Of a stretch of 47,120 bases of DNA, positions 8,093 to 44,426 are shown piece by piece. This DNA is from a virus. Positions within the stretch are counted from its first letter, which is position 1. Each line of letters opens with the position of its first letter. A model generated the notes under the pieces. That model was not told the origin of the DNA. It saw only the letters and a program-made list of their open reading frames with translations, and did not search any database. The translations under genes and the position numbers were made by a program. Where the stretch lies: the UHGV virus genome UHGV-0008871. The stretch is one strand, 5' to 3'.

Positions 8093-8114
8093 AAAAAAAG
8101 GGGCGAATGCCCCT
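8090..8114 (-). terminator. Rho-independent terminator right after the repressor gene (hairpin aggggc-gaat-gcccct plus U-run on the minus strand)
   Basis: Read from the sequence; abuts the cI stop codon. Confidence 0.6.
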
Positions 8115-8764
8115 TATGGAAGGTTTGCTATTTTTGCATCGACAACTACACCGATGATTTTGCAGTTCCCGTTGATCTCAATCATCGGATATTGTGGGTT
8201 AAGTGGTTTTAGAAACCTTCTGCCAGCATCAATAACTAACTTCTTGAAAGTTGCCTCGTTTTCTCCTTCGAGCTTTGCCACTACCAGCTTCCCATTACGA
8301 GGTTCTACTTCAGGATCGACTAGTATTATCATCCCTTCCGGGATGCTAAGACCGGCTGGAGCCGTCATCGAATCACCCTTTACGTCCAGCCAAAACGAAT
8401 CTTCTGAACAATCTACGGTTGTATCGTACCAGTTATCTATTGCACGCTTATGATATGGCTCTACAGCTTCCATCCAACATCCTGCGCTTACCCAACTAAT
8501 TAGAGGATACGAACCTCTTGGATCATGCCTGCTGTGATAGGCAATGTTTGAAAGACTATCTTCTCCTTTCAACAAGTAATCAGGGGAGCACTGTAAAGCC
8601 TTGGCTAAAGCCAATAGGTTTTCGCCATTGGGCTCAGTTTCAGAACGCTCCCATTGGGAAATAGCAACATTAGACACGCCAACCATCTTGCCAAGGGCAG
8701 CCTGCCTAATCTTAAGTTCTTTTCTGCGAGCGCGAATACGCTCACCCATCAGTTGTGTATTCAT
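8114..8764 (-). CDS. cI: Prophage repressor, P22 C2-like (HTH plus LexA-like S24 self-cleavage domain), 216 aa
   Basis: MNTQLMGERIRARRKELKIRQAALGKMVGVSNVAISQWERSETEPNGENLLALAKALQCSPDYLL… plus GDSM…KL motifs; near-identical to recalled P22 c2. Confidence 0.9.
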   Translation of the reverse strand: MNTQLMGERIRARRKELKIRQAALGKMVGVSNVAISQWERSETEPNGENLLALAKALQCSPDYLLKGEDSLSNIAYHSRHDPRGSYPLISWVSAGCWMEAVEPYHKRAIDNWYDTTVDCSEDSFWLDVKGDSMTAPAGLSIPEGMIILVDPEVEPRNGKLVVAKLEGENEATFKKLVIDAGRRFLKPLNPQYPMIEINGNCKIIGVVVDAKIANLP

Positions 8765-20010: not shown

Positions 20011-21426
20011 ATGAACGAAGATGATATCGCAATCGGCAGTTGCTCGCCGGAGCTGATCACGCTCCTGGACAGCGATGACATTCAGCCGGGTATGTCGGCT
20101 GGCTATCAGACCTGCAAAACGATTTACCTCTTCCACCCGTTGGGCGGGAAAATGGTAGATCGCCCGATCAAGATGGCGATGAACGAGTCGCGCACGGTTC
20201 ACATTTCGCAGGCGTATGGCATTGAGCAGCGTCTCCGCGATGCATTTGAGCGGGAGTGGAAAGCACTGGGCGCCGATAAGCACATCGCTAATGCGGCGCG
20301 CATCTCTCGCATTTACGGTGTTTCGGCGATCGCAATGCTGGTTGATAACCAGGAGCCGTCCTCTGCGGTGGACTACCGCACGCTGTATAAGCACAACGTG
20401 ACATTCAACATTCTCGACCCGCTGAACACTGCCGGAAGCATCGTCCTGAACCAGGATCCGAACGCGCAGGACTTTCAGAAGGTCGACGGGATCAGAGTGG
20501 CGGGCAAGCCGTATCACAAATCCCGCTGTGTTGTGCAACAGAACGAGGACCCGATTTATCTGGCCTATAACTCTGCTGCCTTTGGCTTTACCGGTCGCAG
20601 CGTTTACCAGCGCGCTCTGTTCCCGCTGAAATCCTTCATCCAGACCATGCGCACCGATGACATGGTTTCCGTGAAGGGTGGCTTGCTGGTAACGAAGATT
20701 CAGGGACCTAGCTCAGTCGTCAACAACATGATGCAAAAGCTCAGCGGCATCAAACGAATGATGCTGAAGCGAGGGAAGACAGGCGAAGTCCTGCAGATCG
20801 GCGCAAATGACAGCATCGAATCCATCGACCTGAGCAACCTGGAAAAGCCGCTCGACTCCTCCCGGAATCACATTCTGGAGAATATCGCTGCGGCAGCTGA
20901 CATGCCGGCTATCATTCTGAACTCGGAAACATTCGCCCAGGGCTTCGGCGAGGGGACGGAAGACGCTCGATCTGTTGCAGTCTACATCGACAACATCCGC
21001 GAGTGGCTTGAGCCGCTGTATGACTATTTCATCCGTATTTGCCAGTATCGCGCCTGGAGCATTGAGTTTTTCAATTCTCTGCGTGCTGACTTCCCGGAGC
21101 TTAAAAACACGTACAGCCTGTATTTCTCCTCATGGATTAACAACTTCGAATATCGCTGGCCGTCATCCCTGAAAGAGCCGGAAAGCGAAAAAGTGAAGGT
21201 CGACGAAATCCGCTTTAAGGCCATCGTCAGCATGCTGGAAGTCCTTCTCCCGCAGGTCAACACGGATGATGAGAACCGCGCGCTTCTTATCGAGTGGGCG
21301 CAGACCAACGCGAACGCTAACGAAAGCCTGTTCCCGCAGCGACTTGATCTCGATATCGACTCGTTAAAGGCTAACCGGCCTGAACAGCCACGGGATGAAG
21401 AGCCCGGCGGCGGGATGATGCTATGA
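20011..21426 (+). CDS. Portal protein (putative), 471 aa
   Basis: Gene following the large terminase, size typical of portal proteins; acidic C-terminus. Confidence 0.65.
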   Translation: MNEDDIAIGSCSPELITLLDSDDIQPGMSAGYQTCKTIYLFHPLGGKMVDRPIKMAMNESRTVHISQAYGIEQRLRDAFEREWKALGADKHIANAARISRIYGVSAIAMLVDNQEPSSAVDYRTLYKHNVTFNILDPLNTAGSIVLNQDPNAQDFQKVDGIRVAGKPYHKSRCVVQQNEDPIYLAYNSAAFGFTGRSVYQRALFPLKSFIQTMRTDDMVSVKGGLLVTKIQGPSSVVNNMMQKLSGIKRMMLKRGKTGEVLQIGANDSIESIDLSNLEKPLDSSRNHILENIAAAADMPAIILNSETFAQGFGEGTEDARSVAVYIDNIREWLEPLYDYFIRICQYRAWSIEFFNSLRADFPELKNTYSLYFSSWINNFEYRWPSSLKEPESEKVKVDEIRFKAIVSMLEVLLPQVNTDDENRALLIEWAQTNANANESLFPQRLDLDIDSLKANRPEQPRDEEPGGGMML

Positions 21427-22256: not shown

Positions 22257-23870
22257 GTGGCTATTTTTGGCAGCGGGATAATGTTCCGTCAGGGGAAGTT
22301 CGTCTTCCTGATCCAGCGCTCGGATGATGGCACATGGTGCCAGCCGGGCGGGACGATAGAGCCGGGAGAGTTAGCCATAGACGCCGCACGGCGCGAGGTG
22401 CTGGAGGAAACAGGCTATCAGTACGATGGCCCGCTGACGCCGCACAGCGTACATGGTGACTACCTGACCTACCGCGCCGACGTGCCGGAGCAATTCGAAG
22501 CGAAGATAAACGACGAATCGCTGGCCGCCGGATGGTTCCATATTGAAGATCTGCCAAAGCCGCTTCATCAGCCATTCGCTGAAATGCTGGCGCAGCAGGC
22601 GCTCAACGAAACCGACGTGGCCGCGCTCATCGCTGACGGAACGCTCAGCAGCCCGCAATATTTTTACAACATGTGGATGTTCGCCATCCGGGTGACCGGA
22701 ACAGGGGTTACCTGGCGATCTGCAGATCAGGAGATGACGTTCCGTAACCCGGACGACTATCTCACCCCTGAATTTCTCCAGCGGGTAGCTGGCGTACCAC
22801 TTATCTGGCTTCACCCCGAAAAAAGAACACTTGATAGCGACGAGTTCTCAAAGCGCGTTATTGGCACCCTGACAAATGCCTGGGTTGCCGATAAGGGCGA
22901 AGTGTGGGCCGTTGCGCGTGTGTACGACGCCGAAGCTGCTGAAATTATGGCAACAAGGCAATTAAGCACCTCGCCAACTGTGAAGTTCTCAGAGGTTGCT
23001 CAATCAATCATTGTCGACGGTCAGCCTCTACTGGTGGAGCCATCCCCCGAGCTGCTCGACCACGTTGCAATTTGTGAACAGGGCGTGTGGGACAAGCTCC
23101 TTGCCCCTACCGGTGTTAAATCTGATTCCATTCCTGAAGAGGCTGAAAAGATGGACGAGGAAAAAATCGTAGCGCTGATTAATAAGGCGATCGATGCGCG
23201 TTTGGCTAAGGCCGACGAAGAGAAGGAAGCGAAAGCCAAGGCTGACGCCGAAGAGGCCGCCAAGAAAGAAAAGGCTGACGCAGAAGACAAAGAAGCGGAA
23301 GAGGCGAAAGCTAAAGCCGACGCGGAAGAGAAAGCCGCGAAGGAAAAAGCTGATGCTGAAGCCAAAGAAAAGGCGGATGCCGAAGAGGCTGAGAAAATGG
23401 CAAAAGAAAAAGCCGACTCTCAAATCCTCCAGGAAATTGCTGAGCTTCGCTCCCGCATTCCTACCGAACTGAGCGACGAAGAGCGCAACGAAGTTGCAGA
23501 AGCGCAGGTGAAAGCCGATAGCGTCTTCTCCAGCTTTGGCAAACGCGCCCCGATCCCGCTGTCCGGTGAAAAACCGATGGCGTATCGCCGCCGTCTGATG
23601 ATTCAACTGCAGGAGCATTCTCCGGACTACAAAGCCGTCGATCTCTCTGCCATCGCTGATTCTCAACTGCTGAGCACTGCCGAAAAGCATATCTACGCTG
23701 ATGCGCAGAAGGCGGCCAGCCTGTCAGTTGGTCCCGGTATGCTGCGCGAGATTAAGCGCGCCGATGCAACCGGTCGCCAGATCAGCACCTTTGAAGGCGA
23801 TCCCGCCGTCACCTGGGCGCCGTTCCAGTCTGGCAAGCGTCAGGTCACCAGTTTTAACAACCAGGCTTAA
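22257..23870 (+). CDS. Head scaffold-like protein with N-terminal Nudix hydrolase domain and internal Lys/Ala/Glu/Asp-rich repeat region (537 aa)
   Basis: Canonical Nudix box [23 protein letters not shown] (GX5EX7REUXEEXGU) at residues ~30-53; KADAEE-type repeats at residues ~315-380; position between head morphogenesis and capsid genes. Confidence 0.6.
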
Positions 23871-23885: not shown

Positions 23886-24746
23886 ATGGCTAATTTATCT
23901 CTTAACCCGATGGCGACCACGAATGCCGCTGGTTCCTTCGGTGTGCAGTCTGATGGCTTCATTCAGGGCGTTGCTCTGGATGATCCGGCAAATCGCTTTA
24001 ACCTGGCGTCCGGCACTGTCGCCGCCACCGAAACCAAACCGCTGTGGGGTGGCCTGCCGGTTGCCGAGTTGCTGCCCGGCGTGAACTCCAGTCCTCGCGG
24101 GTCGACTATTCGTCGCGCTGTGTCACTGGCTGAACTCGAAGGCTTCACCGTCTTCAACCAGGCCCACAACGGCCTTACCACTCCGCAATCACCGGTTCCG
24201 CTGTATGCGTCCGGCATGAGCGTTTCATTCTACCGCCTTGGATCCAACATGCGCGTTCCGCTGAAAGCTTCAGCGCAGGTGGTAGCGCTCGGAACCGCTG
24301 GCGCATCGGTGAAAACGCCGCTGGCGTGGGACTTCGTCAATAACCAGGTGACCACCGCAGCCGCGGCGGCTTTTGCCGGTGCTGACATTGACACGACCGC
24401 TGTTACCTACTCGAACGGCGTGGCCACCGCCACCACTGCCTCTGCACATGGTCTGACTGCAGGCCAGTACGTGAAGATCAGCGGCGTAGCTCCGACTGCC
24501 TATAACGGCACCGTCGTTGTGCTGAGCGTACCGAGTACGACAACCTTCACCTATGCGCCTGCCAGCGCGCCGGGCGGCTCCACGACCACGCAGGGCACTA
24601 TCGGCGCTGTTGCTCAGGCAGACATCACCCTGCCAGTGAAAGTCATCTCCATCGAGAGTGGGAACTCTAAAACTGTCAGCTATGACAGCGCTACGGGCTT
24701 CCTTACCTGGAACAACACCGACAGCTGCGCGCTGGTCTTACTTTAA
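23886..24746 (+). CDS. Putative head structural/decoration protein with Ser/Thr/Ala-rich beta domain (286 aa)
   Basis: Between scaffold-like and capsid genes; contains a ~55-aa domain also found in the sheath-like protein (28129-29523). Confidence 0.45.
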   Translation: MANLSLNPMATTNAAGSFGVQSDGFIQGVALDDPANRFNLASGTVAATETKPLWGGLPVAELLPGVNSSPRGSTIRRAVSLAELEGFTVFNQAHNGLTTPQSPVPLYASGMSVSFYRLGSNMRVPLKASAQVVALGTAGASVKTPLAWDFVNNQVTTAAAAAFAGADIDTTAVTYSNGVATATTASAHGLTAGQYVKISGVAPTAYNGTVVVLSVPSTTTFTYAPASAPGGSTTTQGTIGAVAQADITLPVKVISIESGNSKTVSYDSATGFLTWNNTDSCALVLL

Positions 24747-24759
24747 TCGGGAGCTTTAA

Positions 24760-25791
24760 ATGGCTGCAATTACCCCCAGCTACACCATCGTCAACCCGTC
24801 GTATATTGCGCCGGAGTTGATCATTGGTTACCAGCAGGCGTCCGGTGCGTTCGAAACCATCGCCAGCGGTAACCCGCAGGTCCGCCTTGGCGTAGGCGAC
24901 CAGTACGTTTATATGCGCCGCCTGGATATTCGTACCCAGGTAACCTCCAGCCAGTCCGGCAACGCCAACCAGCTGCCGAGCGTGGCGCTCGAGGCGCGCA
25001 TGATCTCCACTCCAACCTACCTGTTCCGCTGCCGTGGTATCTACGATCACCACGACACCGCGGCGGCCGGTAACTGGAACGTGGCTCTGCCAGAAGCTCA
25101 GCGTCTCGGCATGCGTCAGGGCATCTTCCAGCAGTTGCGTTCTGCGCTGCTGTACGGCATGAACCCGGCAGGCGGCGAAGGTCTGCTGAACACCGCAGGC
25201 GCGACCACCGAAACCCTGCCGCCGGACAGCAACAGCAACACCACTGTGCTGACCTACGACCATGGACAGATGGCTGTCTATCTGCTGGGCCATGTACAGG
25301 CCGCGCTGACCCGCACCATGCAACTGGGTCGCCAGCAGCGTGTTGTTATCCTCGGTCCGCAGCGAGTGCTGGGCGCGATGGAGATTCAGCAGATCGTTCA
25401 GCTGACATCTTATCAGCGTCCTGGCGGCGGTACTGATACCGTCGGCGGCACCGTGAAAGAGGTTCTCCGTGGCGCGAATGTTCAGGTTGACTGGGTGTAC
25501 GACGACACGCTGATCGGCGCCGGTGCCGGAGGTACTGACGCGGTGGTTATCACCATCCCGGAAGTGGAAGTGCCGATGGTTAACTCCACCGTGAACACCA
25601 ACGAATTCGCCAAACTGAGCCCGTCTCTTGCGGCGAACGCCCTGATGTTCACCGACATGGCTGCACCGATGGAAATCCCGACGCCAATCCCCGGGGGCGC
25701 TATCGACGTGCTGTCAGAAATGCGCTCTACGGCTGGCTGGGCAGTCCGTCCGGAAGCTATCACCATCCTGTCGATGAAATACAGCGACTAA
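24760..25791 (+). CDS. Major capsid protein (putative), 343 aa
   Basis: Size, position and a strong terminator immediately downstream; no sequence-level recognition. Confidence 0.55.
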   Translation: MAAITPSYTIVNPSYIAPELIIGYQQASGAFETIASGNPQVRLGVGDQYVYMRRLDIRTQVTSSQSGNANQLPSVALEARMISTPTYLFRCRGIYDHHDTAAAGNWNVALPEAQRLGMRQGIFQQLRSALLYGMNPAGGEGLLNTAGATTETLPPDSNSNTTVLTYDHGQMAVYLLGHVQAALTRTMQLGRQQRVVILGPQRVLGAMEIQQIVQLTSYQRPGGGTDTVGGTVKEVLRGANVQVDWVYDDTLIGAGAGGTDAVVITIPEVEVPMVNSTVNTNEFAKLSPSLAANALMFTDMAAPMEIPTPIPGGAIDVLSEMRSTAGWAVRPEAITILSMKYSD

Positions 25792-37964: not shown

Positions 37965-40900
37965 ATGGCACTAACCCTTTTGGCTACAAACAACGCAGAA
38001 AGCACGCTGGCTTCTGCTATCAGCGCAACCGACACGTCGCTGATCGTTAGCGCTGGAACTGGTGCCGAGTTCCCTGATGCTGTGGCAGGCGAGAGTTACT
38101 TTAAGCTCACTCTCACCGATGCCGCCACCGGCTCACAGGTTGAGATCGTGAACGTGACAGCTAAGGCCGGAGACATCTTCACGATTGAACGTGCGCAAGA
38201 AGGAACGCTGGCGCGTGCGTGGGCGGCCAACGACATGGTTGCCAACATGATGACGGCGGATACGCTGAACATTATCGCTCAATATGCCCAGCAGGCAGCT
38301 GCATCAGCAGATCAGGCAATTGAGGCTGCTAATAACGCCTCTGAATACGCAAAGAACAAATACACATTCTATAAGACTGCCAGCGATCCTGATGGCACCA
38401 TTGCAGGGTTGGCAGCAACTACTGACGGCCAGTCGTTCTGGGTAGCTCAGGGGCCAGATGCGCTTTCTGCTGCATGGCAGTATCAAAACAATGCTGGCGT
38501 GGCCGTGTTGCAGGCCAAGCAGCCAGGGACAGCGGCCATAACAGGGACAATCCGCGAGTTTCCGACGCTGGCTGCGGCGCAGGCAGACGCAGCTGCGGGT
38601 AATATACCGGTGGGATCAACTGCTTATTATCGCAGCTCAGATGACAATAATCTTTCAATTGAGGTTATCAATACCGCTGGTACGTTGGTAGCAACCGGAA
38701 GAAAAATTCCAGCGTATTCCGCTTTGCGTAGAGGCAACATTTTATTCGACGCATTTAATGAATATTCCTCAAGCCTTTTAACATTCGCTAACTGGGATTG
38801 GTATAAAGGCGCTACGCCAACATTTTCTACTACTGATGTTAATTTGCCGCTTCCAACACCTGTTATTCAAGCTTCTGGTGTAACATCGTTTGATAAATAT
38901 TACGATGTGTCAAAATTACAGGTAAAACCAGGAGACACTTTAGCTTTCTCTGTTTTGGTATGGTTCGAGAACGCTGGAGGCAAGTTACAGATTTATTGGC
39001 TTGATTCAGCAGGAGTAACCATCACTACAGGGGAGGCCTCTCCACTGGTTGCTGGTATATCTTCGCCGGTTGTGGTCATTGCTGTGCCATCTGGCGCATC
39101 ATCCATACGAATTCGGGTGCAAAACACTGTGTCAGGGGCGTTCAAAATCGGTGCCTATGCCGCAGCTATTGGTGATGTTACTCCTGAATTCACAAGGTCT
39201 TTCCCTTCAAAAGCGTACCAGGAGGCATTGGGTACCCCTGATAACCTCGTGTACGATCCTTTTGGCGAGATGCTTTCCGTTCGCCCTAAGCAAGGACTCC
39301 CAGCAGGCGTGGTTGACGCCATGAGTTACGCAGGAACATTGATTCAGAACAGCGCAAATTCACCATGGGGTAAGACCGGGATCCAAAACACGTCAGGAGT
39401 TGGTGCTGATCGTATTATTTCTCTCAGTTCGATGGGGGTTAAGCCGGGAGACACAATCACTGTCCGTCTGGCTGCATGGTTCGCGTCAACGGGTGGCACG
39501 TTTCAGGTTTTCTGTCGTAATGCATCCGGAGTACTTTCTTCGGCAACTATTGCCGCATCAGCATCCGGCTTTAATGATGGAAGTACCACGCTGACAATAC
39601 CAGCATCAACGACATACCTTACGCTTCGCGCATCAGGGGCTATGGTCAAGGAGCTGGTTGCCATAGGTGTAGCTTTCGGACGATCTCGCCCTGAGTTTAT
39701 TTACGGTAGCCTTCCAGCAGAGTATTCAGGATACCAGCGCCAGCAGATTAACCTGTGGCCTGATCCCTGGTATCGCCGCTACGAGTGCGGGGAAACGTGT
39801 ATTGATGGTTGGGGTCCTGCTCAAGTAGCAGGGGTTTCACTACCAGCATATGTTGCGGATTATTCTGGCAGCCCGTTTCTTAGGAAAAAATCTCTGATTA
39901 TCCCAGTAGGTGGTGGTCAGACGGATATTAACATTTCAGCAAAGCGGCTTGGACTGCGTGCTGGAGATTCGCTGACAGTAGCGCTGGGTGTGGTATCGTC
40001 TCAGGCAATCAACGTGGCAGCATATTTCCGGACGGCTAGCGGGACTGTTATTAGTGACAGTTCGTCTCAGTTGTTCCAGTTCCCAACCCAGCAATATCAG
40101 ACTCTGGTTCGCACAATAGCTATCACCCAGACTATTGTTGATACGGCTGGATATCTGCAAATCCGCCTTATGAATGGGCAGACTGTTGGCGCTGCAGGTG
40201 TTTATGTTGTTGCCAGGGGGCTCTTTGTTGGGAATGGCTCTCCTGTACTGAGTGATGATACGTACCGACAGGATGTCGATTACACAACTTCCAGAGCATT
40301 CACGTTAAATCAGGATTCACTCAGAGAGACACATAAGCGCCTGATGAACAGGCGGCTTTCTCAGTCAGCAACACTGGTAACAGCGCACATTGGCGATAGC
40401 TGGACTCACCTGTGGAACCGATGGAGCGGAATTTTTGCCGGAAAAATGCAGGCTGACTATGGCAGTGCAGGTATCGGCTATATCGGATTTGGCTATCCGT
40501 CTGAGGCGGGTTTCGGGCAGTATAACGGCAATATACTTGGTCAGATAACTTTGACCAAAACAGGAACATGGACGCCGACATATGCGGCAGCACAGAGCGC
40601 AGATATTTGTAGCGTCTCGTCTTCTGATACCACCGCTACTTTCAGGGCGAACGGTATACCGGCAAATGCATCGTCAGTCCGCCTTTTTGCTAAACCTCAG
40701 GGGAGTGTTAAATACAGCACAGATGGTGGAGTTAACTGGACAACTATCGACCTGAGCACGTTCACTGACCTTGCGGTTGTCAGCCTCACGGTACCGGCAA
40801 CAGCTTTCAATATCTGGTTCAGTCCGGTATCAGGAACCGTTGAACTGTACGGTCTGGATGTGCAGACCGCGACAGATGGTGTCCGGTCTCACAAGCTGGG

Positions 40901-41354
40901 TGCGACGGGGAGTTCTGCTCAACAATGGGCGGCGCAGGTTACCAGCGCAACATGGAAAGCAGCATTCACCGCGCTGGCCCCCAATCTGGTGACAATTCTG
41001 CATGGGACCAATGACCAGACATCATCCCGTGATCCATCCGCGTTTGCTGCCGATATTCAGACGATAATCACAGCAGTTCGCACTGCATGCCCGTTGGCTG
41101 ATGTTCTGGTGATCATGCCATGTGAAAACCAGAGGAATAACAATGTGGCAATGGCGGCGTATGCGTCTGTTGTACGGGATGTTTGTGCGCTAAACAGGGT
41201 GGCTTATCACAATCTCCAGATTGACTACGGAGACAAGCCATCTGATTACGCATCGACATCTCCACGCAACTGGTTCAATGCTGATGGAATCCATCCTGAC
41301 CCTGCAACTGGAGGTGGGCTGCCGATCGTTTCTGCTGTTTTGAAGTTAATGTAA
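37965..41354 (+). CDS. Long tail fibre: conserved N-terminal anchor domain, three internal ~110-aa repeats, C-terminal SGNH/GDSL-type esterase-like domain (1129 aa from Met at 37965)
   Basis: RBS ggagg before ATG 37965; SGNH blocks HIGDSWT, HGTND and DGIHPD in the last ~330 aa; N-terminus homologous to the second fibre. Confidence 0.75.
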   Translation: MALTLLATNNAESTLASAISATDTSLIVSAGTGAEFPDAVAGESYFKLTLTDAATGSQVEIVNVTAKAGDIFTIERAQEGTLARAWAANDMVANMMTADTLNIIAQYAQQAAASADQAIEAANNASEYAKNKYTFYKTASDPDGTIAGLAATTDGQSFWVAQGPDALSAAWQYQNNAGVAVLQAKQPGTAAITGTIREFPTLAAAQADAAAGNIPVGSTAYYRSSDDNNLSIEVINTAGTLVATGRKIPAYSALRRGNILFDAFNEYSSSLLTFANWDWYKGATPTFSTTDVNLPLPTPVIQASGVTSFDKYYDVSKLQVKPGDTLAFSVLVWFENAGGKLQIYWLDSAGVTITTGEASPLVAGISSPVVVIAVPSGASSIRIRVQNTVSGAFKIGAYAAAIGDVTPEFTRSFPSKAYQEALGTPDNLVYDPFGEMLSVRPKQGLPAGVVDAMSYAGTLIQNSANSPWGKTGIQNTSGVGADRIISLSSMGVKPGDTITVRLAAWFASTGGTFQVFCRNASGVLSSATIAASASGFNDGSTTLTIPASTTYLTLRASGAMVKELVAIGVAFGRSRPEFIYGSLPAEYSGYQRQQINLWPDPWYRRYECGETCIDGWGPAQVAGVSLPAYVADYSGSPFLRKKSLIIPVGGGQTDINISAKRLGLRAGDSLTVALGVVSSQAINVAAYFRTASGTVISDSSSQLFQFPTQQYQTLVRTIAITQTIVDTAGYLQIRLMNGQTVGAAGVYVVARGLFVGNGSPVLSDDTYRQDVDYTTSRAFTLNQDSLRETHKRLMNRRLSQSATLVTAHIGDSWTHLWNRWSGIFAGKMQADYGSAGIGYIGFGYPSEAGFGQYNGNILGQITLTKTGTWTPTYAAAQSADICSVSSSDTTATFRANGIPANASSVRLFAKPQGSVKYSTDGGVNWTTIDLSTFTDLAVVSLTVPATAFNIWFSPVSGTVELYGLDVQTATDGVRSHKLGATGSSAQQWAAQVTSATWKAAFTALAPNLVTILHGTNDQTSSRDPSAFAADIQTIITAVRTACPLADVLVIMPCENQRNNNVAMAAYASVVRDVCALNRVAYHNLQIDYGDKPSDYASTSPRNWFNADGIHPDPATGGGLPIVSAVLKLM

Positions 41355-41387
41355 AACTCCTACATTGATCTTCCCTCACAACAATAA

Positions 41388-41407
41388 TACTGTGTGTTTG
41401 TACAGTA
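41388..41407 (+). promoter_or_regulatory. LexA (SOS) box taCTGTgtgtttgtACAGta within the promoter of the downstream two-gene cassette
   Basis: Perfect CTGT-N8-ACAG palindrome with TA flanks, 18 nt upstream of a gggaggg RBS; overlaps a TATTAT -10-like hexamer. Confidence 0.7.
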
Positions 41408-41425
41408 TTATTGGGAGGGCAGATC

Positions 41426-41665
41426 ATGCTTCGACAGTCAGACATCGCAGCGGCGTTCCGCGAGTCGGTATTGCGCAGTTCCAAGGGGTTCCAGTACCTT
41501 CACACCCGCGACTTCGTTACCGCGCTGCGCCGGCGCGGCATCCATTTTTCCGAGGTGGAGGCGAACTCCTGGATCGCACGCGAGCAAACGTATTTCGTCG
41601 ACAAAACGGCAGAGCATAGTGAAAACTGCCTGTGGATGATGGCCAACATGGGGAGGATTCTGTAA
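41426..41665 (+). CDS. Hypothetical SOS-regulated protein (79 aa)
   Basis: Strong RBS gggaggg 7 nt upstream; LexA box in the promoter; TAATG coupling to the next gene. Confidence 0.55.
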   Translation: MLRQSDIAAAFRESVLRSSKGFQYLHTRDFVTALRRRGIHFSEVEANSWIAREQTYFVDKTAEHSENCLWMMANMGRIL

Positions 41666-41982
41666 TGGGCTTTCCTTCACCCGCGACGGATTACGTTGAG
41701 CAGCGACTGTCTGTCAACTCGATCTGCAATGTTGGGCCTAATACGTTGCTCTTCGAACGGTCTGGCGGTTACGTTGTGCTGGATATCTCCCTGAAGCCAA
41801 AGCAGGGTAGCCAACTACTTATACAGCACGGCGGCGGGACGGAGCTTGCCACGCTGAGAGGAAGGTCGCTGATTACTGAAGATGGTGAAGCGATCGAGGG
41901 CGAAGCCCTGGACGATGTTACTGTCATCGGCGTCGTGACGTTTACTATCTGCGATGTTCGTTCCGATAATTCTATTATTTAA
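41665..41982 (+). CDS. UmuD'-like protein lacking a recognisable serine-protease motif (105 aa)
   Basis: N-terminus MGFPSPATDYVEQRLSVN matches the UmuD/MucA post-cleavage N-terminus (GFPSPAADYVEQRIDLN); QLLIQH and VIGVV also echo UmuD; no GDSM motif. Confidence 0.55.
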   Translation: MGFPSPATDYVEQRLSVNSICNVGPNTLLFERSGGYVVLDISLKPKQGSQLLIQHGGGTELATLRGRSLITEDGEAIEGEALDDVTVIGVVTFTICDVRSDNSII

Positions 41983-41993
41983 CTGGGGTATAT

Positions 41994-43025
41994 ATGGCGC
42001 TGAAGCTATTAGCCAATAATAACGCAAAGAGTGTTCTCGCTGCGGGTATTAGCGCGTCCGCTACCGTTATTACCGTGGGTACTGGAGCGGGGTCTTTATT
42101 CCCGTCCCCTGTATCAGGGCAGAGTTATTTCAAATTAACGATAACCGACGCGGCCACGAAAACAATTTCTGAAATTATGCACGTCACGTCTGTATCCGGT
42201 GACGTGATGACAGTAATTCGTGGTCAGGAAGGAACTACGGCACGTGTATGGTCAACGAATGACATTGTTGCGAATTTAATGACCGCCGGGTCTTTATTAT
42301 CTTTCCTGCAGATCAGCAATAACCTGTCAGAAATTAAAGATGCCGGTGATGATGCGGTAAATGAAGCCCGTTATAACCTCGGAATATCTGATTCCTCTGG
42401 TTTTGTCGGGCGTTCTCTTGGCGCACCAAAAACTTTCTATACAAATGGAACTTATACTCGCTCACCGCTGGCCCGTTATGCAAAAGTAACGTTGGTCGGA
42501 GGTGGCGGCGGCGGTGGCGGGTGCCAGGCATCTAATAACACCGAAACCTTTTCCGGTGCCGGCGGCGGCGCGGGTGCGACCATTATCGTATGGGTTGACC
42601 TGTCTGCTGCCAGTTCTTACGCGATTACTGTCGGCAAGGGTGGTAAGGGCGGAGTTGGCGCAGTAAGTGGTGCGGATGGTGGTGCTACCTCGTTTGCCAG
42701 CCTGTTCTCAGCTCCTGGCGGGAAAGGCGGCGTGAAGTCAGGCGTGTCCAATACCGCCGGCGGCGCCGGAGGTACGGCGGCGACCGGAGATATCAGGATC
42801 AACGGTGGTACCGGCTCAGATGGACAGACAGGCTCAAGCCTTCTGACGGGCAACGGCGGGGCGTCGTATTTTGGCGGCGGTGGCCGGGCGGGTTCTCAGG
42901 CCGGTATTGCTGGCGCAGCTCCCGGATCCGGTGGTGGTGGCGCGTATGACCTTGGGTTTACCGGTACGGCATTTACCGGTGGTGATGGTGCTACTGGCAT
43001 GGCGATCGTGGAAGAATTCGCGTAA
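41994..43025 (+). CDS. Second tail fibre: same N-terminal anchor domain as the long fibre, Gly-rich C-terminal domain (343 aa)
   Basis: N-terminal ~100 aa alignable by eye with fibre 1; C-terminal half is Gly-rich (GGGGGGG, GGxGG repeats). Confidence 0.7.
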   Translation: MALKLLANNNAKSVLAAGISASATVITVGTGAGSLFPSPVSGQSYFKLTITDAATKTISEIMHVTSVSGDVMTVIRGQEGTTARVWSTNDIVANLMTAGSLLSFLQISNNLSEIKDAGDDAVNEARYNLGISDSSGFVGRSLGAPKTFYTNGTYTRSPLARYAKVTLVGGGGGGGGCQASNNTETFSGAGGGAGATIIVWVDLSAASSYAITVGKGGKGGVGAVSGADGGATSFASLFSAPGGKGGVKSGVSNTAGGAGGTAATGDIRINGGTGSDGQTGSSLLTGNGGASYFGGGGRAGSQAGIAGAAPGSGGGGAYDLGFTGTAFTGGDGATGMAIVEEFA

Positions 43026-43029
43026 TGGC

Positions 43030-44226
43030 TTACACTCCTGCACGACCATCGATGTAATCAGCCCACCATTGCATCATTTCTCTGCGCTTATCGAGATACT
43101 GAGCATGGTTGTAAATTCCACGTACAGATCCGCCGTTGGCATGTGCCAGCTGCACTTCAATAGCGTCAGCAGGCCATTCGTGCTCGTTCATAATCGTGCT
43201 GAATTCATGCCTGAATCCGTGACCGCTTTCCAGACCTTCATAGCCGATTTGTTTGATCACAAGCAATACCGCGTTCTCGCAGATTGGCTTCTTCTTATCG
43301 TTGCGCCCGGCAAAAACAAACTCTGAGACTGGTTTGGTGATTGAGCTTAGCGTAGTGAGAAGTTCAACCACCTGGTCTGACATCGGGACCACATGAATTT
43401 TGCGTCCCTTCATCACACTGGCGTCGATGGTGATAATCCTGTTTTCAAAATCGACGTTCTTCCATAGCATGGAACGAAGCTCTTTTGTTCTTAGGGCTGT
43501 GTAGCGTAAAACTTTGGTCGCAATGAGCGATACGATACTTCCTGAAAATGTTGCAAGTGCTTTGTTGAATGCCGGGATCTGGTCGGCAGGTAAAAACGGG
43601 AAGTTCTTCTTGCGGTATCCCTTCATGGCGTCAGCAAGGTCAGGTGCCGGGTTATATTTAGCCCTACCAGTGACAATAGCGTAACGGAAAACCTCGCCGC
43701 ATCTTCTGCGGGCTTTGTTGGCTCGCTCCATTGCACCGCGATCTTCAAATCTGCGGATTACTTCCAGCAGTTGCATCGGCTCAATATCCTGAATTTCAAG
43801 GCCGCCGATGATAGGTAAAATGTCGTCATCAAACATTTTTGCAAGTTCAGTCGCATACCCTACTGACCATACTTGCTTCTTGTGCTCGTACCATTCCTTG
43901 TAAATCGCACTAAAGGAATTGTTGTTAGACGAAGCCTTTTTCGCCTTTACCGGATCGATGCCAACCGAGATGTCTTTCCTCGCAGTCCATGCCTTATCCC
44001 TTGCTTCCTGCAAAGTCATAAGCGGATATTTTCCGACGGTCAGGATTTTCTCCTTACCGTCAATCTTGTAGCGAAGCTGCCATACCTTTTTCCCTGACAC
44101 AGGGACATAAAGGTACAGGCCATTACCATCGAGAAGGCGGTATGGTTTTTCTTTCGGCTTTGCTGCTTCAATCTGCTTAACGGTGAGCATGGGTAAAAAT
44201 CCGGTGGGTAAAATTATTTTATCCAC
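43030..44226 (-). CDS. intS: Tyrosine integrase, P4/IntS-type (398 aa; alternative start at 44190)
   Basis: Adjacent to the tRNA-Arg gene; catalytic HGFRH…Y region; matches my recollection of E. coli IntS (CPS-53/KplE1). Confidence 0.85.
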   Translation of the reverse strand: MDKIILPTGFLPMLTVKQIEAAKPKEKPYRLLDGNGLYLYVPVSGKKVWQLRYKIDGKEKILTVGKYPLMTLQEARDKAWTARKDISVGIDPVKAKKASSNNNSFSAIYKEWYEHKKQVWSVGYATELAKMFDDDILPIIGGLEIQDIEPMQLLEVIRRFEDRGAMERANKARRRCGEVFRYAIVTGRAKYNPAPDLADAMKGYRKKNFPFLPADQIPAFNKALATFSGSIVSLIATKVLRYTALRTKELRSMLWKNVDFENRIITIDASVMKGRKIHVVPMSDQVVELLTTLSSITKPVSEFVFAGRNDKKKPICENAVLLVIKQIGYEGLESGHGFRHEFSTIMNEHEWPADAIEVQLAHANGGSVRGIYNHAQYLDKRREMMQWWADYIDGRAGV

Positions 44227-44351: not shown

Positions 44352-44426
44352 TGGTGTCCCCTGCAGGAATCGAACCTGCAATTAGCCCTTAGGAGGGGCT
44401 CGTTATATCCATTTAACTAAGAGGAC
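44352..44426 (-). tRNA. argW: tRNA-Arg (anticodon CCU), prophage integration target
   Basis: Hand-folded cloverleaf from the minus strand: GTCCTCTTAGTTAAATGGATATAACGAGCCCCTCCTAAGGGCTAATTGCAGGTTCGATTCCTGCAGGGGACACCA; last 15 nt repeated at 442-456. Confidence 0.85.

Follow-up and report, generated by a model that had tools for sequence, protein, structure and literature searches.

A prophage gene pair behind a predicted LexA box encodes a shortened UmuD'-like protein and a winged-helix partner

The question raised by the UHGV virus genome UHGV-0008871, analysed here as one stretch of 47,120 nt (the window), is what a pair of small genes behind an apparent SOS box is doing among the tail-fibre genes of a prophage. 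The window represents a nearly complete lambdoid Escherichia coli prophage inserted at the tRNA-Arg(CCT) gene argW, and the two-gene cassette lies at the distal end of its late region, between the tail-fibre genes and the integrase. The first open reading frame (ORF1; 41426–41665, plus strand) encodes a basic winged-helix protein of 79 amino acids (aa) belonging to PHROG 3893 (function unknown), while the second (ORF2; 41665–41982, plus strand) encodes a shortened 105-aa protein of the UmuD'/HumD type, in which the N-terminal arm is kept, the Ser60 loop is absent and Lys97 is not conserved. By homology, we lean towards the view that at SOS induction the host UmuC protein (DNA polymerase V, Pol V) would receive UmuD' function from the cassette, or have that function modulated by it, with either activation or inhibition of Pol V as the possible outcome.

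The assignment of ORF2 was based on profile comparisons and structure prediction. PHROG 3469 ('UmuD-like protein') matched ORF2 at an E-value of 7e-46, PHROGs carrying no curated cut-off. A profile of the ORF2 family aligned by hhalign end to end with P1 HumD (probability 98.5%, E = 1.7e-15, 38% identity), and with E. coli UmuD from G25 to the C-terminus (probability 97.7%). The predicted fold was the beta fold of the LexA/UmuD C-terminal domain, in keeping with the UmuD'-like/HumD proteins (NCBIfam NF051876; PHROG 3469/811), and significant matches among Protein Data Bank (PDB) sequences were confined to UmuD and UmuD' chains. A fold of this type had been proposed for the second gene, with profile search and structure prediction as the means of recognising it, by an earlier reading made from the letters of the window only (the sequence-only reading), and it was found. 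The same reading had compared the start of the gene to processed UmuD', and residues 2–18 do align with UmuD G25–N41 (UmuD' structure 1UMU). The family N-terminus is MGFPSPAxDYVEQR, with the arm (GFPSPAxDYvE) beginning at the post-cleavage glycine; columns G2, F3, S5, P6 and D9 were near-invariant in a set reaching down to 25% identity, and in these alignments the N-terminal arm is the most conserved part of the ORF2 family. Of two shorter 'echoes' of UmuD pointed out in the sequence-only reading, VIGVV aligns with UmuD VFGVV, but QLLIQH is not positionally homologous: in ORF2 it aligns with UmuD GDIVIAAV, and UmuD QLLIQH aligns with ORF2 SICNVG.

The remainder of the protein has been reduced. 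The GDSM motif is absent from ORF2, and the alignment indicates a loop deletion rather than a substitution, with ~10–12 residues that include the Ser60/GDSM loop missing from all family members. Nor is Lys97 conserved, its column reading A/V or K/R/T according to the alignment used, and the Ser-Lys catalytic dyad of Peptidase S24 is not present. Without the serine motif ORF2 cannot self-cleave, as had been suspected from the sequence, and self-cleavage would be needless, since the post-cleavage glycine is already its starting point. Where UmuD has LIPMNSAYSPI (LxPxNxxYxPI in S24 proteins), the ORF2 family has an acidic segment, LITEDGEAIEGEAL, that is almost invariant, and the family is strongly acidic overall, with a median isoelectric point (pI) of 4.4.

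Comparison with known systems placed ORF2 closest to P1 HumD. Like ORF2, HumD is a UmuD' homologue without the cleavable N-terminal 24 residues, starts with MGFPSPA, has no cognate umuC and ends in a DDCPV tail. In the P1 record humD has an annotated LexA site immediately in front of it, as the cassette has its box, and the downstream flanking sequence of that site is similar to that of the cassette. The tail, DDxPV in its general form, is common to ORF2 and HumD and absent from UmuD, and together with the other features of ORF2 it marks the protein as a shortened derivative of the phage HumD lineage. The two also differ: HumD is 129 aa long and keeps both the Ser loop (ADSHH) and the Lys (RIKRY), whereas the 105-aa ORF2 has neither and carries LITEDGEAIEGEAL in place of the corresponding HumD segment; moreover, the neighbour of humD is a divergent 190-aa gene, lxr, unrelated to ORF1, while ORF2 is preceded by a coupled winged-helix gene. 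Relative to E. coli UmuD (umuDC), ORF2 lacks the pro-sequence, the Ser60/Lys97 dyad and a downstream umuC. Other proteins of HumD size are N15 gp26, phiKO2 gp23 and those of HK639 and P1/P7/D6; N15 gene 26 encodes a UmuD homologue located after the tail fibre gp25, in the same genomic slot as the cassette. A LexA-controlled, pre-truncated phage UmuD' homologue is hence already known as a kind (P1 humD, N15 gene 26, PHROG 3469 'UmuD-like protein'), and the description of the module as undescribed had to be given up at this level. What does appear undescribed in the literature searched is the dyad-less 105-aa form with its invariant acidic motif, the constant winged-helix partner and the armless relatives located beside umuDC.

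Expression of the pair was addressed through the sequence upstream of ORF1. The perfect SOS box noted by the sequence-only reading right after the long fibre gene is present at 41388–41407 (plus strand): the palindrome TACTGTGTGTTTGTACAGTA, a predicted LexA box lying 18 nt before the ORF1 ATG, is the single zero-mismatch occurrence of TACTGT-N8-ACAGTA in the window, with 12 of 12 outer positions of the Enterobacterales operator TACTGT(AT)4ACAGTA matching. Its promoter-like context and strong ribosome-binding site were likewise borne out. A −35 hexamer TTGATC (41365–41370, plus strand) is positioned 17 nt before the box, the left half of which (TACTGT) occupies the expected −10 hexamer position, and the ribosome-binding site GGGAGGG (41413–41419, plus strand) lies 6 nt before the ATG, a GGAGG-like element being kept in related loci as well.

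Among 107 loci with ORF1, 98 carried a CTG-N10-CAG box no more than 100 nt upstream of the gene (consensus TACTGTATATAAAAACAGTA), the end of the box usually lying 18 nt before the start codon. Of 88 distinct upstream regions, 66 had a TTG[AC][TC][CA] hexamer at a distance of 17 nt before the box and another 7 had it at 18 nt, and related loci showed almost no variation in the spacing of the box from either the −35 hexamer or the start codon. Genuine umuDC operons, in loci L028 and L025, share the TTGATC-17-TACTGT layout. By these counts conservation of the box exceeds chance and, as a noncoding element that stays fixed in loci whose proteins are just 30–59% identical, the box is under selection. 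The regulatory half of the proposed mechanism, with LexA sitting on the promoter in the lysogen and released upon DNA damage, is thus a prediction well supported in silico.

Seven of the nine loci without a box carried one common foreign insertion at that spot. These were IMG/VR prophage contigs (L040, L043, L048, L084, L085, L087 and L090) in which the insertion lies ~130 nt upstream of ORF1; the foreign sequence takes the place of the −35 hexamer and LexA box and ends in ...ccctaccgcgac just before the ribosome-binding site, and it probably uncouples the cassette from LexA in these contigs. Some 12 nt ahead of the −35 hexamer, loci L002, L005, L010–L016, L019, L023, L024, L026 and L030 share a conserved (A/T)TTAATAGGC motif even though their upstream genes differ; it might mark the left boundary of a mobile cassette, act as an UP-like element or simply be two stop codons that end the preceding gene. 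The looser pattern CTGT-N8-ACAG occurred four times in the window against 0.5 copies expected, with the three extra palindromes (20526–20541, 24673–24688 and 40045–40060) all inside ORFs; the one at 24673 lies ~70 nt upstream of an ATG at 24760, and the one at 40043–40062 is 2 mismatches away from the full 20-mer consensus.

The two genes overlap as TAATG, in line with the translational coupling of a 79-aa and a 105-aa gene described by the sequence-only reading, and the coupling is kept in diverged loci. We collected 31 such loci from a collection with one genome per species, in which ORF2 was 34–59% identical to the window copy. In ~23 of them a 79–80-aa ORF1 homologue (30–53% identity) was located directly upstream of a 104–108-aa ORF2, with a stop/start overlap or a gap of 0–3 nt at the junction, and the TTGATC-17/18-nt-TACTGT...ACAG..RBS..ATG layout (RBS, ribosome-binding site) was kept upstream. 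ORF2 was present in 79 of 80 viral contigs with ORF1, and the ratios of non-synonymous to synonymous substitution rates (dN/dS) against the window copy were 0.13 for ORF1 and 0.12 for ORF2. In silico, both genes are therefore shown to be under purifying selection and co-inherited across Enterobacterales prophages.

The cassette is also widespread. DNA-level matches were obtained in 32 phage records, mostly of Klebsiella, including temperate phages named after OXA-48, VIM and KPC host strains, and 149 of 5426 complete E. coli genomes contained it. At the protein level, 854 ORF2-like and 307 ORF1-like clusters were retrieved (the largest homologue clusters having 820, 2058 and 3207 member sequences), and 208 proteins matched ORF2 among representatives chosen at one per 50% identity. 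In each phage examined, tail-fibre genes preceded the cassette, and the integrase or the end of the prophage was close by. We read the region as a 'moron', an accessory cassette under predicted SOS control in the usual cargo position.

ORF1, the constant partner, was modelled with confidence by AlphaFold2 (predicted local distance difference test score, pLDDT, of 90.9) as a winged helix with the topology H1-b1-H2-H3-b2-b3. Searches of Pfam, NCBIfam, PADLOC and PDB sequences with the single sequence, the profile or 44 family members gave no match, apart from scattered noise-level Pfam matches in 1–2 of the 44 members, and a BFVD fold search returned the HK225-type homologue alone. The family is basic (median pI 9.3), with a charge complementary to that of the acidic ORF2 family, and this complementarity, the coupled translation and the co-inheritance make an ORF1–ORF2 complex plausible. 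Conserved acidic residues in helix 3 and the wing (E45, position 51, which is acidic in 61% of members, D59 and E66) mean that DNA binding by ORF1 is not obvious.

Several candidate identities for ORF1 were rejected. An SPC32H-type Ant, Tum or another solved protein was not recovered from the PDB by sequence or profile, and P1 Lxr aligned with an hhalign probability of just 0.15%. The names 'invertase' and 'recombinase' (PF00239, PF02796) attached to some homologues did not indicate a serine invertase relic, as they derive from the joining of an intact ORF1 to the C-terminal portion of an invertase encoded next to it; in HK225 the invertase gene is separate, and ORF1 itself has no Pfam match and a winged-helix fold. 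Such in-frame fusions, to the E-helix or helix-turn-helix end of a serine invertase, were seen in P0171, P0131, P0210 and P0236. A simple scan also picked out a terminator-like GC-rich hairpin followed by a T run (CCGCGCTGCGCCGGCGCGG CATCCATTTT) inside the window copy of ORF1, at 41520–41548.

How would such a pair act? In enterobacteria, damage-induced mutations arise mainly through Pol V, whose activation normally has to wait for the slow cleavage of UmuD. A search for umuC in the window found none, so that the partner would be a host-encoded UmuC. In the lysogen, LexA would hold the cassette off, and damage would lead via RecA* and LexA cleavage to its transcription. Removal of Met1 from ORF2 by methionine aminopeptidase would leave a GFPSPA... 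N-terminus, the same as in the product of RecA-mediated UmuD cleavage, and the arm could then engage host UmuC, either as a homodimer or as a heterodimer with UmuD or UmuD'. Pol V activity would thereby be changed at the moment of prophage induction. The direction we favour is that of P1 HumD, namely UmuD' function provided at once, bypassing slow RecA*-dependent UmuD maturation, in which case damaged templates of both phage and host could still be copied ahead of lysis. ORF1 would most likely bind the acidic ORF2 and either stabilise it or serve as its adaptor; this is the weakest link in the scheme. In the work of McLenigan et al. (1999), P1 HumD is said to restore UmuD' function, to dimerise and to bind both UmuC and RecA filaments, and the engineered UmuD' of Nohmi et al. 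(1988) reportedly does not need Ser60.

The effector half of this mechanism is favoured on grounds of homology, and the structural background to it is provided by models of related polymerases. In AlphaFold models of Pol V, the palm and little-finger domains of UmuC have one UmuD' arm inserted between them, adjacent to the active site, and armless UmuD' dimerises yet is dead for mutagenesis (PMC11791011). In Gram-positive mutasomes of the YqjW type, a homologous N-terminal arm is the sole element common to different small subunits, and its insertion into the polymerase resembles that of the UmuD' arm into UmuC (PMC12926913). The suggestion of the sequence-only reading that a UmuD' mimic may act on Pol V or RecA was a sensible direction to take.

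A number of observations weigh against an effect on Pol V through UmuD' function. The Pol V model has UmuD' S36/T71/K73, equivalent to UmuD S60/T95/K97, as the docking site for the C-terminal carboxylate of UmuC (PMC11791011); with neither the Ser loop nor a conserved Lys, ORF2 has probably lost one of the two contacts to UmuC in that model, which could make it a poor activator or even an inhibitor. ORF2 scored below the curated thresholds of its nearest families, reaching 48.6 bits (7e-13) against a cut-off of 120 for NCBIfam HumD (NF051876) and 29.7 bits against a cut-off of 110 for PRK10276. It had no Pfam match, Peptidase_S24 (PF00717) included, at E ≤ 1, and no precomputed Pfam match existed for the 120 ORF2 homologues listed. 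ORF1 occurs without ORF2 in HK225, P18-100 and L038. The promoter is weak by consensus, falling below the threshold of a generic sigma-70 scan, and was consequently not called. Finally, a literature search by keyword and accession found no paper on this mini-UmuD'/winged-helix family; a paper on Gifsy-1 STM14_3218-3220 (PMC9879122) proved to be unrelated.

The probable loss of a UmuC contact leads to the main rival, in which ORF2 is a Pol V antagonist. Its arm would sit in UmuC, or ORF2 would join a UmuD/UmuD' heterodimer, forming dead-end complexes without the UmuC-tail pocket, so that in the course of induction the UmuDC checkpoint or the SOS mutagenesis of the host would be damped. The deleted Ser60 loop and the unconserved Lys97 are consistent with this, these being the residues that form the modelled pocket, as is the invariant acidic motif in place of the S24 LxPxNxxYxPI segment. 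Armless variants of the mini form, located inside or beside umuDC operons, also speak for an antagonist. These were found in a minority of loci (L025, L027, L028, L031 and L035) and keep the invariant LITEDGEAIEGEA motif: in L025 the armless form is directly upstream of umuDC with a LexA box of its own, in L027 and L028 it comes directly after umuC on a dusA-integrated island, and in L031 it follows ORF1. Retention of LITEDGEAIEGEA in the absence of the arm indicates that the globular domain has a conserved role independent of the arm, which is a further point against the favoured reading. Set against the antagonist, the closest characterised relative, P1 HumD, is reported to be an activator; the arm and the exact post-cleavage N-terminus are the most conserved features, as would be expected of a productive subunit; and the pocket assignment is based on an in silico model only. 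Taking both sides together, we consider an antagonist rather unlikely.

In terms of coordinates, the armless mini-UmuD' forms with the ITEDGEAIEGEA motif were located at L025 231–2422, L028 1955–3956, L027 22–1364 and L031 3756–4276. Other arrangements of the same components were also seen: mEp390 and Flotzy have ORF1 with the mini form, HK140 and an Enterobacter hormaechei locus have ORF1 with a protein of HumD size, and Atlantibacter loci have the mini form alone, directly behind the box. One short metagenomic viral contig of Klebsiella type (L111, 678–4426) carries the cassette, an integrase remnant and, ~1.5 kb downstream, umuD-umuC, in which the umuD ORF looks truncated.

Rather than a simple UmuD' substitute, the pair may be a phage 'Pol V governor', a proposal to which we assign a low probability. 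The arm would occupy the UmuC cleft while the pocket that clamps the UmuC C-terminus has been discarded, and the winged-helix partner and the acidic LITEDGEAIEGEA surface would serve to block, retarget (e.g. to phage replication forks) or retime Pol V. If the cassette does speed up, block or redirect Pol V, prophage content would alter the mutation supply under DNA-damaging antibiotics, and the survival of induced phage genomes would be affected as well; were the governor proposal true, SOS mutagenesis in clinical Klebsiella and E. coli lineages would be set by prophage content. The abundance of the cassette in prophages of clinical Klebsiella and E. coli raises the interest of a ready-made, protease-independent UmuD'-like subunit encoded under predicted LexA control. 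The ORF2 family also represents a natural dissection of UmuD', with the arm kept and the catalytic and UmuC-tail pocket gone, against which the in silico Pol V mutasome model can be tested, and ORF1, its constant winged-helix partner, adds a new and uncharacterised component to modules of this kind.

Instead of UmuC, the pair might address RecA*, tuning its co-protease activity or filament stability in the manner of DinI or ImpC. In its favour is HK225 (L117, 3662–4908), where a dinI homologue is divergently paired with the ORF1 homologue across the same LexA box, with an invertase downstream and ORF2 missing. Operons of the impCAB type, known from plasmids and reportedly described by Lodwick et al. 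(1990), resemble the cassette in having a small first gene of ~80 aa before a UmuD homologue under a LexA box, followed in their case by a UmuC homologue, and ORF1 stands in the position of that first gene. The strong acidity of ORF2 and its invariant acidic motif are compatible with a RecA* modulator, and UmuD-family proteins bind RecA*. On the other hand, ImpC is DinI-like, whereas ORF1 is a predicted winged helix, a fold unlike that of DinI, and the cassette lacks an ImpB/UmuC gene. No Pfam DinI match was obtained for ORF1 or for the 44 family members, and ORF1 was dismissed as a DinI/ImpC candidate for this reason and for its predicted fold. Nothing ties the acidic motif to RecA, while the conservation of the arm points to UmuC. 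A RecA* modulator is, in our estimate, distinctly unlikely.

A different comparison, with the LexA-controlled antirepressors of Gifsy- and 186-type phages, had been drawn by the sequence-only reading. It stood as far as LexA control is concerned: like the cassette, Gifsy dinI-gfoA/gftA, 186 Tum and N15 AntC are small prophage genes under LexA that are freed by DNA damage (PMC3121763), and the dinI of the Gifsy module has a parallel in the dinI homologue that is the divergent neighbour of ORF1 in HK225. The rest of the analogy failed. The prophage CI repressor (8114–8764, minus strand) combines HTH_3 with a full Peptidase_S24 domain in which GDSM is present, and is thus of the self-cleaving type; with CI intact and neither ORF resembling a known antirepressor, an antirepressor or induction module, for instance with ORF2 mimicking the C-terminal domain of CI as a decoy, is not favoured. 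That decoy was rejected as a candidate, ORF2 having no sequence similarity to CI and aligning end to end with HumD/UmuD'. UmuD and UmuD' aside, no solved chain gave a significant match to either ORF, and the cassette occurs in records of six genera with different genome types in the 'phages' collection. The genome position differs too: the LexA-controlled SOS locus of Gifsy, which also has another build, adjoins replication genes, not the tail region (PMC3121763). The tblastn matches listed for ORF1 and ORF2 in the phage collection included no Gifsy or 186 record. An antirepressor role is accordingly very improbable in our view.

Least probable of all, to the point of being hardly credible, is that the two genes are accessory to the tail fibre, as a pair of chaperones or in its assembly, or that they are a pair for defence or of the toxin-antitoxin kind, located here by chance. 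It is the position of the cassette that brings up this explanation. Upstream lies an 1129-aa tail fibre (37965–41354, plus strand) with a C-terminal GDSL/SGNH esterase (Pfam Lipase_GDSL_2), the counterpart of which in the nearest E. coli relative is named 'SGNH/GDSL hydrolase' by PGAP, and downstream, starting 11 nt past the ORF2 stop, a 343-aa fibre-like Gly_rich_2 protein (41994–43025, plus strand). The two flanking fibres have their N-terminal 125 aa in common (50% identity) and differ in their distal domains (GDSL esterase versus glycine-rich), which gives them the look of alternative receptor-binding proteins built on a shared anchor. A scan of the stretch between ORF2 and the downstream fibre gene gave no terminator-like site, so that late transcription probably reads through the SOS cassette; conversely, SOS transcription may extend into the second fibre gene. 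This location and likely read-through, together with the small size, overlap and opposite charge of the genes, would suit an assembly or toxin-antitoxin pair. However, the UmuD'-type fold with its arm and the conserved LexA box would not, and in some loci the cassette lies beside an integrase or a prophage end with no fibre gene after it. The routine tail-fibre chaperone that the sequence-only reading had entertained as an alternative did not materialise, since no tail-chaperone, toxin or antitoxin family was matched consistently by either ORF, and a defence or toxin-antitoxin pair was set aside in view of the lack of any PADLOC match and the noise-level Pfam matches.

Beyond the second fibre gene, the prophage ends with an IntS-type integrase (43030–44226, minus strand), followed by the tRNA-Arg(CCT) gene that marks the attachment site (44352–44426, minus strand) and by the host genes yfdC and mlaA. 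When known RNA elements were searched for in this region, the tRNA-Arg alone was found. In the head region, the equivalents of two further ORFs in the nearest E. coli relative, strain MEI008, are called 'anti-CBASS protein Acb1 family protein' (20011–21426; 471 aa) and 'NUDIX hydrolase' (22257–23870; 537 aa) by PGAP.

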